From positions 4,402,001 to 4,466,000 of the forward strand of contig JBHGNT010000014.1 in the NCBI GenBank assembly GCA_043228905.1: a stretch of DNA of 64,000 nt, written 5' to 3'. Below are positions 9,201 through 35,891 of the stretch, piece by piece. The DNA is from Azolla caroliniana (taxonomy: Eukaryota; Plantae; Polypodiophyta). The notes below the pieces were generated by a model, which made no database searches, was not told the origin of the DNA, and saw nothing but the letters and a program-made list of their open reading frames with translations. Both the position numbers and the translations under genes were made by a program. Position 1 is the first letter of the stretch; each line of letters opens with the position of its first letter.

Positions 9201-10779
9201 CTCCAACATCTTCACCGTCATTTTCACGTTTCGCCATTTCTTGCACTTAGTCGCTATGGCTTGCACATCCGCATATCATTCTTCGACTTCGTCTCCAAAG
9301 GGGGTCGCCTTAGTGGTCGCCGAAAGGTGTTATAGGTTTTAGGGTTAGGGTTAAGGACGATGATAATCATGATAAAGATAGACATGTGTTGGGAGACAGG
9401 TCCCTCTGGATTGGAAGGGAGAAGAACAATGTTGATGAGCAAACTCGGCCGAGGCCGAAACCGAATGAGGAGTACCCGGCTACGGAGAGCCGGATGGTGC
9501 AGACCCGGTGAGAACCGGATGAGGAGTACCCGGCTACGGAGAGCCGGATGGTGCAGACCCGGTGAGAACCGGATGAGGAGTACCCGGCTACGGAGAGCCG
9601 GATGGTGCAGACCCGGTGAGCACCAGAGGAGGAGTACCCGGCTACGGAGAGCCGAATGGTGCAGACCCGGTGAGAACCGGATGAGGAGTACCCGGCTACG
9701 GAGAGCCAGATGGTGCAGACCTGGTGAGCACCGGATGAGGAGTACCCGGCTACGGAGAGCCGGATGGTGCAAACCCGGTGAGAACCGGATGAGGAGTACC
9801 TGGCTATGGAGAGCCGGATAGTGCAGACCCGGTGAGAACCGGATGAGGAGTACCCGGCTACGGAGAGCCGAATGGTGGAGACCCGGTGAGGAGTGCTCAC
9901 CGGATGAAGAGACATATTCGTAAATATGTTTCGGAGAGTCCATCGAGGCTATATTTGTAAATAGTATAAATATGACTTAGGGCAAACTTTTATGTAGTAG
10001 TCGTTGTCATTCTTGTTGGCGTAAGAAGAGAGTGTGTGTAACAGTGTACAGAGAGTGAGAGAGAGAGAGGAAGAGGTCGTTGCCTCTGTTGTAACCACCG
10101 CCTGTGGCGAAGGTCATGAGCGCGAGGTCGTTCCCTCCGTGGGCTCACTGTTGTAATCATTGTGATATAGTGATGGTTTGGAGTCTGTGGACTCCCGTGG
10201 TTTTTCCCTCTCAGGGTTTTCCACGTTAAACATCCTGTATACTTTTCTCTCCTCTGTGTTGTGTCTTCACCTTTCCCGTTTTCTGTGTATGATTCTAAGC
10301 TCGGTTGTGGCTGAGCGTTGCGCATAAGGAGCATTTAGTTCCTGTCAACATGGTGGTTATGATGATGATGGAGAGTATGGGATTGATGGCGAGAGAGATC
10401 ATGTGCATTGAGAAGCATTGCGGGGTGGGGGGTGGTGCCTAGAATGGCTCCACCCCCCTCCCAAGGGGATTCAACGTTAAGGGGGAGAGAGAGATTGAGA
10501 GAGAAAAATGATTATTCATGTTTCATTCATTCCCCATAAGGGGTTAAATAGTACAAGGAGGGGTAGATACATAGGGGTGTAAGCCCCCTCGAGCATTCAT
10601 ACTGGACACTCACTCACACCTCCTCATGTCCATCCACATGCACACACGCGTGCATGTGTTCACATACGTATAGACTCACAATTACATTTATGCCCCCTAC
10701 ACATACACAACAATATCATGATAACATTTGACCCTCGCTCATCACACTTGACTCTTCGTACATCTCGTACGGGGTAACA
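6262..10779 (+). mobile_element. Non-autonomous two-LTR element with Arg-type PBS (LARD-like)
   Basis: LTRs at 6262-6775 and 9328-10779 (the latter split by a solo LTR). TSD TGGTT/TGGTC inside Copia A. PBS TGGCACGCCTGTGGGA at 6781. No gag or pol motifs in the 2.55-kb interior. Confidence 0.85.
9387..10347 (+). mobile_element. Solo LTR, same family as 327-1352
   Basis: TG...CA ends with perfect TSD ACATG (9382-9386, 10348-10352), a 54-bp repeat array and a TATAAATA box. Confidence 0.9.
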
Positions 10780-26567: not shown

Positions 26568-26789
26568 TTTATCTAATCAACAAGTCTCCTTTTGTGCCTC
26601 TGAAAGGTGATGTTTCACAAAGGGTGTGGTTAGGTATAGATGTCTCCTACCAACACCCGGGGGTGTTCGGATGCCTAGTATATATGCATGTAACTAAGGA
26701 TAAGAGGTCGAAGCTCGATAGCAAGTAGAAACCATGCATATTTCTGGGGTATTCGGAGGATGAATTAGGCTATAGGCTATCCGAGAACC

Positions 26790-27495
26790 ATAGTTGAGTA
26801 AAGTAGCTAATTAGCTATCCTACTAGCTAATTAGCTACTACCATAGTTGAGTAACGTACCTAATTAGCTATCCTACTAGCTAATTAGCTACTGGCAACTA
26901 ATTAGCTATCCTAGTAGCTAATTAGCTGCTGGCAACTAATTAGCTATCCTACTAGCGAATTAGCTATCCTAGTAGCTACTGCCATAGTTGTGTAAAGTAG
27001 CTAATAAGCTATCCTAGTAGCTAATTAGCTACTGGCAGCTAATTATGTATCCTAGTAGCTAATTAGCTACTGGCAGCTAATTAGCTATCCTAGTAGCTAA
27101 TTAGCTGATGGCAACTAATTAGCTATCCTACTAGCGAATTAGCTATCCTAGTAGCTACTGCCATAGTTGTGTAAAGTAGCTAATAAGCTATCCTAGTAGC
27201 TAATTAGCTACTGGCAGCTAATTATGTATCCTAGTAGCTAATTAGCTACTGGCAGCTAATTAGCTATCCTAGTAGCTAATTAGCTACTGGCAGCTAATTA
27301 GCTGTCCTAGTAGCTAATAAGCTATCCTAACTACTACCATAGTTGAGTAAAGTACCTAATTAGCTATCCTAACTACTACCATAGTTGAGTAAAGTACCTA
27401 ATTAGCTATCATACTAGCTAATTAGCTATCGTACTAGCTAATTAGCTATCCTAGCTTCTACCATAGTTTAGTAAAGTAGCTAATTAGCTATCCTA
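26790..27495. repeat. TAGCTAATTAGCTA palindrome array (left)
   Basis: Dozens of copies of the 14-bp palindrome with short spacers and higher-order repetition; the array ends just before an AG splice acceptor at 27516-27517. Confidence 0.95.
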
Positions 27496-27517
27496 AATAA
27501 CTGTCATGTTATTGTAG

Positions 27518-29396
27518 AATCTTGTGGATTAAGGACGGCACATGATGTGTCTGGTGCTGATGATGCTGCAACAGATGAGGATACTACTGCCAATGTGGCT
27601 GAAAGTAAGAGTCCTGCTATCACATCTCCTTCAGATCAGCTGCACCCTATTCTTTTGGAACAGTGTACTGAATTAGGCAACGATGTGAAATGCCATGAAA
27701 TAGTGGAAACAACATGTAAAACTGAGGTTCACAACAACAGTGTTTATGAACACTTGATGCAACATTTCTTCGAGTCTCAAGACCTTGATTCCACCCCACC
27801 GAGCCCAACTACTGAAAATGTCCAAACAGATCCCTCTGTACTTGAAAAGCTAGTTCAAGAAACGGCTGATGTGCAATTAGCTGCTGAGGCGATGGGAAGG
27901 TTGTCGGAGGAGGACACACTTGCGCATTGGGTCCTAGAAGCAAGGCTAAATGGGGAACCAACCAGAAAAAGGCTGAAGAAGGGGCCACGATCGGGAACAA
28001 GACCAGTTACTCGGTCAAGGGGCCCAGACGTAGTGGAGCGAAATACTGTTTAGTTGGATATGATTGTTAGCTTAGGGATTTTGCTAGGGTTTTATGAAGT
28101 TTTACTATCCTGTTGGACAAGTAAAACCTCAGATTGGTTGTTGCTTGATCCACATTATGTAATGGAACTCTATGATGTTTTTCCAAGATAATTTGAAGAG
28201 TGTTGTTCTATGACTGAAACTCTTTGATGTTCAGGATATTGTTTTGTGAGACTAGTAGTTACTTTGTGAGTGTGAATATGTTGGTGTTTTCTGATGTTGC
28301 AGAGTCTAAAGGGTTTGATTCTATTGCTCGTAAGGCCAATGGCAGTGTGGATACTGTTGATGTTGCGGCATGTTTAAAGGGCCCCATCTTGAAAGTAGAT
28401 GTAGCAACTGACACAAGTGATCTGGTCACACAAGTTGATCAAGCATGTAGCACGGATGACTTGGTGTTGCAGGTAGATGCAGCATGTAGCACGGATGACT
28501 TGGTGTTGCAGGTAGATGCAGCATGTAGCACGGATGACTTGGTGTTGCAGGTAGATGCAGCATGTAGCACGGATGACTTGGTGTTGCAGGTAGATGCAGC
28601 ATGTGATACCAGTGGATTGATATCGAGCAGAACAGTAGCTACATGCACTGAGGTAATCCAAGGATTGATAACTAAGTCGACAAAACAAGAGCACCAGAAT
28701 GTGAAGCTAGGCCCAACACAGTCGACTAGGGGTTTAAAGAGGAAAAGGACACCAGTTGTGTCAGCCGAACCTGAGCTGATTGAGATTGATCGTATCCTAC
28801 CAGAAAATGGTGTAACAGCGGCTCAGTTTCAGGAATGGAAACCTAAACCACTAGAAGTCGAGCGAAGAGCCTTGATCTTGGAGCTGGATAAAGTCTTGAT
28901 GAGTGTGAGATATATGCAGCCAAGGAGGGACGCAAATCAGTTTCTAGAGTGGGCTGCGGAGTACTTCGATTTGTTTATTTGGAGTGAGAAACCAAAATCA
29001 GATGTGTGGAAGTGTTTGGCAAGATTCTTCCCAAAATGGCGAAGTCGTTTTAAAGGTCAATGGGCACGAGAAAATTGTGAGCAGATGGAAGCTGCAAGAT
29101 TCAAGAGGCTTTCTGATTTTTGGGCTACTTGGCCTGAATATAATGCTGACAATACATTGATTTTGGATACAGAACATTTCCGACACTACTTCAATATTCG
29201 GAGATGCTGTCTCATTCTACCCGAGGAAATGCCTGAACAGTACCTGGTGCAAACAGTGAGCTGCCAACTAGGTGCATGGTTGTGGACTCCATACCGAGCT
29301 CAATATGCGGATAATATATGTAGACTCGTTCCACTGACTAGCAAGAGCTTAGCTGTTTATAGGAGATTTGTAGACATTTCCAATGGTAATTTATAA
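27518..29396 (+). CDS. Transposon accessory protein, 5'-truncated: 13-aa repeats, KRKR NLS and C-terminal FCP1/NIF-like (HAD-fold) domain
   Basis: Predicted exons 27518-27604 and 28303-29396 (phase-1 GT/AG). Motifs LILELDKVL...RRDANQFLEW..YFDLFIWS...WARENC...KRLSDFW...NTLILD follow the NIF/SCP pattern. No start exon is visible. Confidence 0.6.
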
Positions 29397-29579
29397 ATAT
29401 GTAAAGAGATGACATTATTCAATGAAGAATTTTGTTCCCACTGTACTTATCTACTATGTAATTTGAGGAATATGTTGCAGATTGTTGATTTCATTCTATT
29501 GATGACTATTTAGCTATTGACAGCTAATTAGCTACATTTGTACAGCTAATTAGCTGCATTTGTACAGCTAATTAGCTGC

Positions 29580-30055
29580 ATTTGTACAGCTAATTAGCTA
29601 CTGATGAGTCTGTCGCTATAACTTATAACTTAAAACTTAACAAAAAAGACATGATTTTATTGAGAAAGAAGCACAGAAAGCAGACTGTATACAAGAATTT
29701 GATTCCAAACGAATTTATTGATCTGTTTTCGCGAAATACATGTTTGTTTTACAAGAGAACATGGTAAGTGCTACTTGTAGCTACAAATTCCATGGCATAC
29801 TATTGTAAATACATTTGTACAGCTAATTAGCTACTGATGAGTCTGTCGCTATAACTTATAACTTAAAACTTAACAAAAAAGACATGATTTTATTGAGAAA
29901 GAAGCACAGAAAGCAGACTGTATACAAGAAATTGATTCCAAACGAATTTATTGATCTGTTTTCGCGAAATACATGTTTGTTTTACAAGAGAACATGGTAA
30001 GTGCTACTTGTAGCTACAAATTCCATGGCATACTATTGTAAATACATTTGTACAG
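29580..30055. repeat. 233-bp tandem duplication of the transposase stop and 3' UTR
   Basis: CTGATGAGTC recurs at 29601 and 29834; the last codons (CIYNSMPWNL*) are duplicated. Confidence 0.9.
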
Positions 30056-33000
30056 CTTAGCACCAACAGTGTATAAACCGGAGCAGCTATTGTATTCTGA
30101 CATTGGGACGTTGATGCATCTGACCAAATGAGAGTACATATACGCTGCTGGTTTGTCTTCTAACAGCCTGTACACATATTCGTAGTCATCTAGTTTTGCA
30201 TAAAAAATGCCTTCGATGTAGAATGTCCCGGCAGATACAAAATTTCCCCATGCATCTACAATATTCTGCCTTGCACACTGTTTACTAACCGTGCACTTTA
30301 ATATATAGAAATCAACACCCTCTGAATTGCCTTCTTCAGCATTTACAGCGAAGTTATCCCCAACGTTCAGGACATCACTCAAAGTATCTCCAAGTCCCTC
30401 ATATGTGAAGTCAGCATTCTGCCCTGTTTCTCCATCAACTGCTTCCTTATCATTCAGAGTGTGATACTCCCAATTCTGAATGTATGCTTTGTTTAGACAA
30501 TATCTCCAATTTCCCTGCACACAATGGAAGCAAAAACAAGTCAATTCTCTAACCGCAATACAATGACCATCCAACCTGGAATAACCGCGAACAGCATGCA
30601 GAGATCGCAATTCGGGAATTCCTTGGCACTCCCAGGTCTTCTCCCTATTTACTTCATCTATCTTCACTTCCCAAAATTCATGTTTGATATCTCGAACTTG
30701 CGAGGAATAAACACCTGTGGCACTCGTCGACATATTTGTTCTTAAAAATTCAACTACATGTGATGCACAATTCATGTGCACACCATCTGTCTTTAGTTGT
30801 TCATGGGTAAGTGCCCGCTTTATAACAGCCCCTGCACCATCATGTTCACCTTTACCATGGCCAGACCCAAAAAAATTCCATCTCATCTCCAAACCTGTTA
30901 TAGCAGGATACCTCCCCACAAAATAAAATGGACGTCGAGCCTTGAATTGTGACGCAGCTCCGTCAGACCAGACCCAATGTTGAGTAAGCTCCAAACGTTG
31001 AGCTAATAACCACTGCCAATGTAACTTAAAACAGTGTTGGACGAACAAGGTATCATGCTTCTTATCATCGGAAATAAAGAAATGAATTACTTTTTTAACA
31101 TCACCTGAAACTCGAAAATATGTTATGTGCACAAAAATGGTTACCTGAACTGAACACCAATGCATAGATTGAATTTCATTCTGCTGCTTGAAAGTATAAT
31201 TCTCTGCGAAATCTACTACTGAGACTACTACATCATTTGGGAAATCAGATATGCAAGTCTTAAACTGATGGGCCTGCCATGAATAAATGAAGTTGTGTTT
31301 AATGAACTTTCCTAGAGATACTACAAACAGAGACACCAAATCCCTTGGTTTAAGCATCTTCCGAACTAGATCCTTTCTTTTACACACCTTTCCTTCGAAA
31401 TTGGTGTTCACTGACTCAAATAACTTCACAGAGATCAATATTTCACTACTCAATTCTTTTGGACACCACCTAAATCTAGTAGGGCCACAATCTTGACATA
31501 AACCCATGACACATTTATGAATATGGAAGATAGCGTCAGATTCTCTCGGACACAATATTGAATCTAATAAATAACTCATGGAAGAGATAACGTGCTCAGA
31601 TGATTTACACTCCTCTTGCGGGCTTGATCGACAGATTTGGCACCCACATGTGCAAACTGTATTAGTTAGGGATGCGCTATGGTGACGTAGTAGATTAACA
31701 GAGTCCTTCAGAAAACCCATCTGTACATGGTAAATGCAACAACATGTGTATCGATCCTTTAAGCGTCTCACAAAGTGTGGCTTAAGAGACTCGAATGTTC
31801 GTAGTTGAACTTTGATAGTTGGATGCATTCGTTTGAACCTAATAAATAAATCGACCTGCGTAATAAAGGGGAATTAGTTATTCTCGTAACTAGCTAACTA
31901 TCCTAGTAGCTAATTAGCTATTCTAGTAGCTAGTTAGCTATTCTAGTAGCTAGTTAGCTATTCTAGTAGCCAATTAGCTATCATGGTAGCTAATTAGCTA
32001 TTCTAGTAGCTAATTAGCTATCATGGTACCTAATTAGCTGTCGTAGTAGCTAATTAGCTATCATGGTACCTAATTAGCTGTCGTAGTAGCTAATTAGCTA
32101 TCATGGTAGCTAATTAGCTGTCGTAGTAGCTAATTAGCTGTCGTAGTAGCTAATTAGCTATCATGGTAGCTAATTAGCTATTCTAGTAGCTAATTAGCTA
32201 TCATGGTAGCTAGTTAGCTGTCGTAGTAGCTAATTAGCTATCATGGTAGCTAGTTAGCTGTCGTAGTAGCTAATTAGCTATCATGGTAGCTAATTAGCTG
32301 TCGTAGTAGCTAATTAGCTATCATGGTAGCTAATTAGCTGTCGTAGTAGCTAATTAGCTATCATGGTAGCTAATTAGCTGTCGTAGTAGCTAATTAGCTA
32401 TCATGGTAGCTAATTAGCTATTCTAGTAGCTAATTAGCTATTCTAGTAGCTAATTAGCTATCATGGTAGCTAATTAGCTGTCGTAGTAGCTAATTAGCTA
32501 TCATGGTAGCTAATTAGCTGTCCTAGTAGCTAATTAGTTGTCCTAGTAGCTAATTAGCTATCATGGTGGCTAATTAGCTTGTCTACTAGCTAATTAGCTA
32601 TCATGGTGGCTAATTAGCTTTCCTAGTAACTAATTAGCTATCATGGTAGCTAATTAGCTGGTCTAGAAGCTAATTAGCTATCGTGGTAGCTAATTAGCTA
32701 GTCTAGTAGCTAATTAGCTATAATGGTGGCTGATTAGCTTTCCTAGTAACTAATTAGCTATCATGGTAGCTAATTAGCTGGTATAGTAGCTAATTAGCTA
32801 TCATGGTAGCTAATTAGCTATCACGGTGGCTAATTAGCTGTCCTAGTAACTAATTAGCTATCATGGTAGCTAATTAGCTGGTCTAGTAGCTAATTAGCTA
32901 TAATGGTGGCTAATTAGCTATCCTAACTAATTAGCTATCATGGTAGTAGCTATTGAGAGTAGCCAGTTACCTATGTAGTAGCTATCATAGTAGCTAATTA

Positions 33001-34049
33001 GCTATCATGGTAGCTAATTAGCTTTCCTAGTAGCTAATTAGTTGGTAATAACGAAATAGCTAACTAGCTACCATGATAGCTAACTAGCTAGCAGTACAGC
33101 TAATTATCTGGTAGTACCTAAATTAGCTATTGAGAATAGCTAATTAGCTATCATGGTAGTAACTATTGAGAGTAGCTAGTTACCTATGTAGTAGCGATCC
33201 TAGTAGCTAACTGAGGTAAATGTAACTGATAAGCTAATTAGCTTTTCTGCTAACTGAGCTAATTAACTTTCCGAGTAGAGTCAAAACAAATGTTGAGATA
33301 AATGTAAATACCTGAGGTACATCAAGAAGATGAATGGGATGCTCCTCGTATTGATTTCTTCCAACACGTTTCCTGCATAAATCCTTTTTATTGGGTGAAA
33401 CCCTACTCTCATTAGTCCAAAACATTGTGATTACATCCTTGATTTCAAATGTTATGGGTGTCATTGGCTTACATCTTGTAGTTAGCTTTAGTAGACTAGT
33501 TCCTTCACCCGAGGAAATTATACGGTTCATTGTATTGTACACTGTTTTTCTACTAACACCAATTACCTTAGATAGCTCACTGATGTTTATATCGTCAACA
33601 TCACTATTAAGTAACATCATTAGACTAGACCTTTTTAAGACAAGATCATCTTCTGACCTGCTCATGGATACGAAACTATTACGAAGATTATTTACTAAAA
33701 TAGATGATATGTTTGCATTAAGACCATCACAATCAACTAAGTCCTTTATCGATGGATCATTACATATTCCATAAAGTACTACCTTCTTTTCTTCATTGCT
33801 GATGTGCTTGGTTTGAACATTGAAATAGTCTACAACCTTTCTCTCTATGATGGTAGTCGCATTACTTACATTCTCATCTAAACTATCCTTACCTTTACTG
33901 AGTGTGGCTTTCGTATCCTTCAACAATTGACGATGTTTCCTTTTTTTTTCTGCCCAATAGTTTCGTATGGCTTGTTGTGTCCTGATAACATCATCCCTAT
34001 CCTTATGATCATTGAGGGGTAATTCTAAACACCCTTCTTCCCCTTCCAT
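30014..34049 (-). CDS. Sola2-like DDD transposase, two exons (34049-33312, 31855-30014), about 860 aa
   Basis: A phase-0 GT...AG intron joins LLDVPQ|VDLFIRFKRMHP. Motifs RYTCCCIYH, VDFAENY-QNEIQSMHW, SDDKKHD, WSDGAASQFK and FFGSGHGKGEHDGAG. No stops or frameshifts. Confidence 0.8.
31880..33265. repeat. TAGCTAATTAGCTA palindrome array filling the transposase intron
   Basis: 20-bp period (14-bp palindrome plus a 6-bp spacer such as TCATGG, TCGTAG or TTCTAG), roughly 60 units. Confidence 0.95.
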
Positions 34050-34394
34050 TTGGCTAGACATGTTAAAACCCTAAATTTCCAGAAAAAAAAACAAGTATTA
34101 AAGATGGCTATGGGCAACAACAATACACAAAAATATTCCACACAATACACAAGATTAGACACAACAATACACAAGATAATCAATAGACAGAAAAGTTATT
34201 GCAATCCAAGACCGAACAGTAGAGGATTTCACTCTGTTGGATCCAACAGTTGAGGAGGCGATCCAAGACCGACCAATGGCAACAACTGAGTGTAGAATGT
34301 TGCCGTTGGATGAGTGAACTCCGTCAAATCGAAATGTGGAAGCAATCCGGGACTGGACAGTAGTGGCAACTGAGTATAGAATGATGGCAATGGA

Positions 34395-35045
34395 GGAGAG
34401 AACCCCGTCAGATTGAACAGTTACCGATGATGCTTGAAACGCACATAGAAGGCACTTGAGAATAGAGTGGCATAGAGAAGAGAACCCCGTCAGATTGAAC
34501 AGTTACCAATGATGCTTGAAACGCACAGTAGCGGCCCCTGAGTGACAGTGGAAAAGAGAAGAGAACCCCGTCAGATTGAACAGTTACCAATGATGCTTGA
34601 AACGCACAGTAGCGGCCCCTGAGTGAGAGTGGAAAAGAGAAGAGAACCCCGTCAGATTGAACAGTTACCAATGATGCTTGAAACGCACAGTAGCGGCCCC
34701 TGAGTGAGAGTGGAAAAGAGAAGAGAACCCCGTCAGATTGAATAGCTCTTCGATTATGCTTGGAACGCACAGTAGCAACCCCTGAGTGTAGAGTGGCAAA
34801 GAGAAGAGAACCCCGTCAGATTGAACAACTCTTTGATGATGCTTGGAACGCACAGTAATGGCCCCTGAGTGTAGAGTGGCACAGAGAAGAGAACCCCGTC
34901 AGATTGAACAGCTCTTTGATGATGCTTGGAATGCACAATAGTGGCCCCTGAGTGTAGAGTGTCACAGAGAAGAGAACCCCGTCAGATTGAGCAGCTCTTT
35001 GATGATGCTTGGAACGCACAGTAGCAGCCCCTCAGTGTAGAGTGG
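34395..35045. repeat. 81-83-bp tandem repeat x8 upstream of the transposase
   Basis: The CAG of GAGAACCCCGTCAGATTGA recurs at 34409, 34491, 34572, 34653, 34734, 34817, 34900 and 34983. Confidence 0.9.
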
Positions 35046-35891
35046 CGGCAGGTGGACTCGATAGGGTTTAGCAACAGTGGTAGCAACTAACCCACAGTAC
35101 TCAACTAGAGATGGCCTACGTGATGTGGCAAAGGATCATGCATAATGGACCTAGGAATTCGATATATAATTTATGGTACACATTTATGGTGCACACATCA
35201 ATTTATGTTGCACATTTATGGCACTCATTTACATATGTAATTAAAACACTCTAGTATTTTCAATGGTAGTTTTTTGCATACTTAATTTATTAATGATGGC
35301 TTTTTACTAAAATGACTATTTATCAATGGTAGCTTTTTGCATAGCTAATTAGCTATGTCAAGGACATAGCTAATTGTTTCCACTCGCATGCTTTCACCCA
35401 TGGGACCTTCTCAATAAGAAGGTTGTGAGGAGTTGAGACTTTGTGTTTATGGAAGACAAGACAATCGAAGACTGGAAACAACAACATTTGGGGTTGTCTT
35501 GTCAACGGACTCCGAACACATGACTAGTCGACTTGGCACAATCGATTGTTAAGACAACCAATCGAAATAGCCGAATCCGAGTCGGTTGACTCGGAGCAAC
35601 TGACAAACACATATGAGTCGGAGTCAACAGAACTCCAACAACCAACTGACATGCATGAACCCGAGCTGAATGAAGAGCCAACAGAGACATCTGAACCTGA
35701 ACCAACAATGGGAGGCATGAGATATCCACTTAGAGAAAGGAGAGCACCCACACGATACGCCAATCAATACGTCCTCTTGATTGATGACAGTGAGCGAGAA
35801 TGCTATTATATGCGGATGACATGTTAATAGTCGGACAGGACACAAAGAAGATCGTGAGCTTAAAGAAAGCCCTAGACAAATCGTTTGCCAT

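Follow-up and report, generated by a model that had tools for sequence, protein, structure and literature searches.

In flowering plants, sequence-specific anti-silencing by transposons is documented, in the parts of the literature accessible to us, for elements of the Mutator-like and Spm kinds. The accessible sections of the VANDAL reports describe family-specific short motifs, a fast turnover of spacers and an accessory gene with variable peptide repeats (PMC5735166, PMC10398659). According to the same sections, VANC targets form tandem arrays in introns (PMC5735166), and AT9TSD1, an unrelated element, shares the VANC6 motifs (PMC5735166, PMC10398659). For TnpA, the accessible part of a further report states that activation requires dense motif clusters and that a transposase alone can activate (10.64898/2026.08.24.746577).

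Here we describe arrays of a 14-bp palindrome in a transposon of the Sola2 type. With a probability of roughly 0.55, we read these arrays as candidate binding sites for an element-encoded activator or anti-silencer, comparable to VANC or TnpA, with a Copia lineage as a hitchhiker on the same sites. The window (the whole 64-kb stretch of DNA analysed) contains the following features of the element.

26781-35399, unstranded: family A copy of a Sola2-type DNA transposon (~12.2 kb when complete) that has lost its left part, sitting in a Copia pol gene and delimited by copy comparison
26790-27495, plus strand: motif array 1, what is left at the 3' side of a predicted intron that follows the RING exon, with 11 exact motifs and an acceptor AG at 27516-27517 (splice sites predicted)
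27518-28050, plus strand: predicted acidic linker exon of the accessory gene
28303-29396, plus strand: predicted last exon of the accessory gene, with 13-aa repeats (39 bp x 4.2) and an FCP1/NIF-like HAD domain (PF03031, E 1.2e-7)
29520-29833, unstranded: copies of the motif between the 3' ends of the two convergent genes, with a 22-bp period and 1-2 mismatches
30014-31855, minus strand: transposase exon 2, with a CCC-H zinc motif, the Sola2 motifs DFAENY, SDGAASQFK and HGKGEHDG, and an RNase H-like fold
31856-33311, minus strand: transposase intron with the 20-bp-period TAGCTAATTAGCTA array, 26 exact sites and ~63 units (TRF, splice join)
33312-34061, minus strand: transposase exon 1, with a predicted ATG at 34061 and a helix-turn-helix (HTH_11, E 6.7e-5, under the curated cut-off)
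34357-35046, unstranded: 83-bp tandem repeat of 8.4 copies in the transposase 5' region, motif-free
35342-35374, unstranded: subterminal motif plus a half site adjoining the TIR
35375-35399, unstranded: right 25-bp TIR, with ATGG (35400-35403) as the presumed 4-bp target duplication

The window copy lacks the left TIR and the first ~3.5 kb of the element, and the reading frame of the interrupted host Copia resumes on its far side. At the left junction (26775-26790), the host Copia and the array share a GCTAT microhomology, accompanied by a few filler bases. Twenty family A copies were fetched, and both ends are present in 19 of them. All 19 have a 4-bp TSD (18 exact, one with one mismatch), and their lengths are 11.1-12.6 kb in 18 cases and 9.0 kb in the remaining one. 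The TIR is 25 bp long with one mismatch and ends GGG...CCC; Sola2 termini follow a 5'-GRG rule. Since exact TIR ends number 553 genome-wide, we estimate roughly 280 elements. Judged from its copies, the element is young and numerous. The 93 candidates scored from the 1,616 of a transposase search were all 98-100% identical, and the 150 scored from the 605 of a NIF exon search were 95-100% identical. A MITE of family A, ~300 bp long (L165:1802-2098; G000:C1:9195800-9199800), keeps both TIRs and the subterminal sites. The left 5' intron of full copies contains GATTAGGGTTT repeats, which we take to be telo-box-like. Elsewhere in the window, 54-bp tandem arrays of opposite orientation occupy 800-1255 and 9459-9890, probably within LTR retrotransposons, and a similar unit occurs in locus L208.

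The transposase intron begins with GT (33311) and ends with AG (31856), is 1,456 bp long and in phase 0, and its removal joins DVPQ to VDLF. These limits, already given in the first-pass annotation, proved right: one contig of a run that we guess to be RNA spans the join at a depth of about 4, and no run recorded as RNA contained this stretch. The motifs DF[AS]ENY, SDG.A.Q[FY]K and W.FF..SHGK..CDG.G were matched by eye to the Sola2 alignment in the accessible part of PMC3627910. D303, HGKG and D344 are invariant among 49 relatives. Proteins named from a moss, a liverwort, ferns and gymnosperms count among the relatives of the transposase, which points to a seed-free plant as the likely host. 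The transposase model (pLDDT 83.7) gave weak matches to integrase/RNase H folds, and exon 2 matched no Pfam family. Judged by the motifs read by eye, the RNase H fold, the short TIRs and the 4-bp TSD, the element is of the Sola2 type.

Direct checking bears out the earlier description of TAGCTAATTAGCTA as a self-complementary 14-mer with stop codons in all three frames of both strands. The window contains 38 exact sites, of which 11 lie in 26804-27477, 26 in the transposase intron and one at 35342. With up to two mismatches the number rises to 92, all confined to 26,800-35,355. Mapping across the genome retrieved 19,622 exact sites, as against 11 for a reversed control. A full family A copy carries 67 exact motifs, so that ~280 elements would account, as a rough sum, for about 18,600 of these sites. 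The first-pass annotation had noticed the motif nowhere outside the element, which is true of the window but not of the genome, where Copia LTRs carry it as well; six isolated sites examined on contig 1 comprised one element end, one MITE and four in LTRs. The 20-bp period across the transposase intron was recovered by TRF (period 20, 62.6 copies, 31898-33159), and an array in this intron is present in 20 of 20 fetched copies. Array 1 does hold its 11 exact motifs, but in place of a regular period TRF reports periods of 38-179 bp, the sites are mostly 18-53 bp apart, and the stretch is the remnant of a predicted accessory-gene intron. Sites between the genes are likewise present (29521-29820), though none is exact, each having 1-2 mismatches; a 233-bp duplication lies at 29579-30057. 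At the right subterminus the recurrence is as described, with the exact motif at 35342 and the half site next to the TIR. The motif contains neither CG nor CHG, and the absence of CG claimed earlier thus holds for the word itself but not for the spacers (TCGTAG in 10 of 51 units). In the 51 in-register units, core positions 3-12 show 8 changes in 510, while the spacers are varied (11 forms), and an older subfamily of family A has retained the core with new spacers.

When up to two mismatches are allowed, the introns of one full copy contain 79 and 61 sites, the 3' gap five, the left end two and the right end one, and the exon-containing regions have none. Motif copies stand beside both termini in family A, two on the left and one or two on the right, far fewer than in the introns. 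The left array is complete in 18 of the 20 fetched copies. Repeat regions within a family share words, as measured by 7-mer cosine, in A (0.33-0.87), C (0.46), L084 (0.38) and L087 (0.31), and weakly in B (0.14) and E (0.17); the values are at most 0.13 for A versus unrelated families and at most 0.19 for A versus E, which has a similar word.

A search for divergent families with P0002 returned family A only, and another pattern search found three places, all family A-like where examined. A codon-variant pattern retrieved 192 further transposase sites, and ten were fetched. Families B, C and D show roughly 35-47% identity and similar TIRs, and a 4-bp TSD was found in five sister-family copies. 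As the first-pass annotation had considered, related families do carry different motifs: the word is AGCTAATTAGCT in A, TTAGTACTAA in B/C/D, in short (TTA)GTACTAA(T), GGTAATTAGT in E, AGGTGAAA in L086 and TTGGTACT in L087. The transposase intron that holds the array is one in A and E and another in B/C/D, the latter being absent from family A. In A, B and C, arrays also occupy the accessory-gene intron that follows the RING exon, at a homologous position. Single word sites flank the TIRs in B-D. In family B the word points in the same direction along the element in both genes. Among 80 metagenome loci, five close relatives were viewed in detail or by k-mer count. L081 carries the family A word; in L082, L084 and L087 a word particular to the locus occurs in intron 1 and reappears 3' of the gene; a word particular to L086 is present in intron 1 and beside the TIR. 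Most of the 80 loci, especially those with 27-46% transposase identity, showed no clear array among their top 8-mers, and many of the contigs are short.

Full copies have a second gene, convergent with the transposase. Its protein comprises, in this order, an N-terminal ~135-aa domain, a coiled coil, a RING-like finger with weak Pfam matches only, an acidic linker, 13-aa repeats and a NIF-like domain. The array intron falls between the finger and the linker and is predicted from in-phase splice sites alone. In the 5' part of the gene, contigs from two runs span three introns, each with GT..AG ends, but no contig joined across array 1; the missing cover over the arrays says nothing either way. 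A DxD motif is the catalytic signature of FCP1/NIF-like HAD domains, and the NIF-like domain here is without the first catalytic Asp (ELD). The 39-bp coding repeat (window 28442-28604) encodes the 13-aa units, and the ORF measures 353-405 aa in most copies, in 13-aa steps.

The N-terminal domain (L061:1117-1590, ~135 aa) is conserved, with 139 relatives. Among 44 relatives scanned, a NIF match was also present in two and a RING match in three. The fusions to other domains that some database relatives show are probably mis-predicted gene models. Searches with the domain gave no Pfam match, no Atlas match, no longer homologue by word search, and only coiled-coil matches among PDB sequences. Its model has a pLDDT of 94.6, and the best structural match among PDB representatives reached a Z of 2.5; this counts as no match among solved structures and does not establish a new fold. 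No known DNA-binding motif was recognisable in the domain, and the domain was not detected in an 8.9-kb array-bearing contig of family E.

The word also occurs in a young Copia lineage, as a cluster in U3 just upstream of a TATA-like box. A U3 pattern finds at least 424 such LTRs. In the elements fetched, which were chosen by a neighbouring U3 pattern, the cluster is present in 19 of 19. All are Copia-type, with TG..CA LTRs, PBS/PPT and the order gag-protease-integrase-RT; their LTR pairs are 93.7-100% identical, and several have an intact frame of ~1,450 aa. The LTR clusters mostly contain 5-7 motif-like sites (range 2-8) with a spacing of ~18 bp, against a background of 2 sites in the 55,381 bp of the window outside the Sola2 element, and one more site lies ~0.9 kb downstream (word-bearing loci L176-L199, L211 and L213, e.g. 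G000:C5:5614500-5620600). A 31-bp string is common to the Copia cluster and the array in the accessory intron. LTRs with an identical 21-bp start number 707, and 20 of them, chosen for the absence of the U3 pattern, were fetched: a variant cluster occurs in seven, and the U3 of the other 13 is unrelated, GC-rich and free of sites. Because other Sola2 families have related words and sister LTRs are without the cluster, transfer from Sola2 to Copia would be the simpler direction. Most of the loci L200-L210, L212 and L214 show, ~170-230 bp from the LTR start, AGTACT-type sites just before TATA, e.g. a pair AAGTACT..CAGTACTT. These sites resemble the family B word, which may reflect chance or a host site.

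We favour docking sites because related families use different words and because an unrelated retrotransposon carries the same word in its likely promoter. The comparison with VANC target arrays made by the first-pass annotation is supported circumstantially, by the presence of the array in 20 of 20 copies, the restriction of the sites to non-coding parts, the family-specific words, the return of a word in different repeat units and the sites at both TIRs and in the Copia U3; the binding itself is a prediction from sequence. In the proposed mechanism, a dimeric element protein would bind the palindrome. Dense clusters would be needed, and slippage would expand the word where coding permits, mainly in introns. 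Binding would then open or demethylate the element and activate the promoters at both ends, including those of its own silenced copies. The word and its binder would co-diverge between families, and one Copia lineage would have gained the word in its U3 and hence be co-activated. As to the binder, the accessory protein is slightly favoured over the helix-turn-helix of the transposase. Several results weigh against the mechanism: the accessory domain has neither a Pfam or fold match nor a recognisable DNA-binding motif and went undetected in the family E contig, most of the metagenome loci gave no clear array, and the copies lack a lasting footprint of demethylation. A more ambitious proposal, which we hold tentatively and think rather doubtful, is that plant Sola2 elements have a third, independently evolved system of sequence-specific self-activation. 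Here the accessory protein, with its domain without a fold match, its RING-like finger and its dead CTD-phosphatase-like domain, would bind the intron words, and Copia would have captured the word and be switched on by the protein of the transposon.

The main rival, unlikely though conceivable, is that the word is instead a host transcription-factor site, amplified separately by the Sola2 family and the Copia lineage as an enhancer. The TAATTA core of the word is presumably of the homeodomain type, and tandem U3 boxes of plant LTRs are usually host-factor sites. The position of the word upstream of the TATA-like box in the Copia U3, the AGTACT pairs of sister Copia LTRs, like the family B word, and the likewise promoter-proximal position of the end motifs would all suit such a site. 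On the other hand, the words differ among Sola2 families, which fits a co-evolving binder, all six isolated sites examined on contig 1 are inside transposons, and the word adjoins both TIRs and is kept in the MITE.

Neutral minisatellites offer a less probable account. An AT-rich palindrome would expand by slippage and template switching, be copied within the element and into the LTR, and survive without CG or CHG to decay. Array length in the transposase intron does vary freely (41-64 sites among the 20 fetched copies), copy L020 is without array 1 although its two TIRs are present and its TSD is exact, palindromic variants with two mismatches are common (96 of 468), and CG/CHG decay is strong. 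This last point comes from the private mutations in 33 sequences, where transitions per 1,000 site-copies amount to 10.7 at CG, 9.9 at CHG, 2.9 at CHH and 1.0 at A/T, the CG/CHG rate being about 10 times the A/T rate throughout the copies. However, unrelated and partly non-palindromic words recur at equivalent places in several families, and the core of the Copia cluster has survived several different spacers. One result from the same 33 sequences speaks against the favoured reading of an activator or anti-silencer: CG/CHG transitions showed no dip within 300 bp of the arrays (12.3 versus 9.95 per 1,000, p=0.21), and this mutation-based test revealed no lasting footprint of demethylation near them. 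Since CG/CHG transitions are high without a dip near the arrays, the mutation record indicates that the copies are methylated for most of their history; any anti-silencing by the predicted binder would be episodic.

We give still less credence to the idea that the array acts as RNA, its intron hairpins yielding siRNA or tuning splicing as a self-limiting control. The self-pairing RNA proposed earlier is borne out for family A, whose intron folds at -443.6 kcal/mol compared with -229.7 for shuffles (z -31), and folding is modest in families C and D (z -2.7 to -5.6); the property is not conserved, however, as the family B transposase intron folds no better than shuffles (z about +1). The polarity of the word also tracks the DNA strand rather than the transcript, and the end and U3 sites are badly placed for splicing. 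As the family A intron is strongly self-pairing, siRNA is plausible as a by-product. A role of the word as a branch point, suggested by its CTAAT, was rejected because the family B word GTACTAAT is 27:5 antisense in the accessory intron. Selection of the word as a six-frame stop cassette, to keep unspliced RNA from being translated, is very improbable and was likewise rejected. Such words are rare (29 of 2,688 composition-matched 14-bp palindromes), and the longest stop-free run in the array intron is 25 codons, the mean for shuffles being 80. But the property was noticed post hoc, the word of the sister families B/C/D stops a single frame, and one stop is enough: in shuffled introns all three frames are stopped within a median of 25 codons, and in the real intron the reading frame ends after 25. 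The stop codons of the word are likely incidental.

If binding of an element-encoded protein is the right explanation, anti-silencing would be extended to seed-free plants and to a superfamily that is unrelated to the known cases and uses unrelated protein parts, and this would suggest that intron motif arrays are a convergent solution. If the Copia reading is also true, one mobile element would parasitise the anti-silencing signal of another. If a host-factor site is involved instead, two transposon classes would share one enhancer, a more ordinary case. The genome itself provides natural test material: several families differ in their words, intact copies are nearly identical, and some Copia LTRs have the word while others lack it. 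Targeted epigenome editing could also make use of a dimeric protein that binds a 14-bp palindrome free of CG and CHG.

Among the known systems, the available sections of the open literature hold no report of this motif, of accessory genes in plant Sola2 elements or of an LTR using the sites of a DNA transposon. The element resembles the Sola2 elements in the accessible part of PMC3627910 in its transposase motifs, short TIRs, 4-bp TSD and room for a second gene (Fanzor there), and differs in that its TSDs are not restricted to AWWT; neither a RING/NIF accessory gene nor intron arrays were found in that part of the Sola literature. Sola1-1_Ec32 of Ectocarpus is, in the accessible text of PMC12477816, likewise a large Sola element; its accessory gene lies on the opposite strand, and the product is proposed to bind and modify the element that encodes it. 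It is, however, a Sola1 element with a ParB-methyltransferase cargo, and the string 'palindrom' is absent from the accessible main text (PMC12477816). As in Spm/CACTA TnpA and the AtMu1 transposase, the motifs are family-specific and clustered near the termini; unlike in those systems, where the sites are terminal, most sites here lie deep inside the introns, and the search for a TnpA-like domain in this element found none. The likeness to VANDAL/VANC is broader and includes family-specific arrays in introns and non-coding parts, spacer turnover, an accessory gene with peptide repeats, which are variable in VANC proteins as are the 13-aa units here, and a word shared with an unrelated element. 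In contrast to the Mu-like VANDAL elements, the present one is Sola2, with intact TIRs, a 4-bp TSD and no Mutator-type transposase. Neither its exons nor the top families for 71 aligned relatives gave a DUF1985 or DUF287 Pfam match as would a VANC protein, and RING-like and NIF-like parts are found instead. Its motif is a long palindrome, unlike those of VANC, the sharer is a Copia LTR, and binding and demethylation are predictions. By these comparisons, the system is one that would work like VANC and TnpA but is a member of neither, since its transposase and accessory domains differ.
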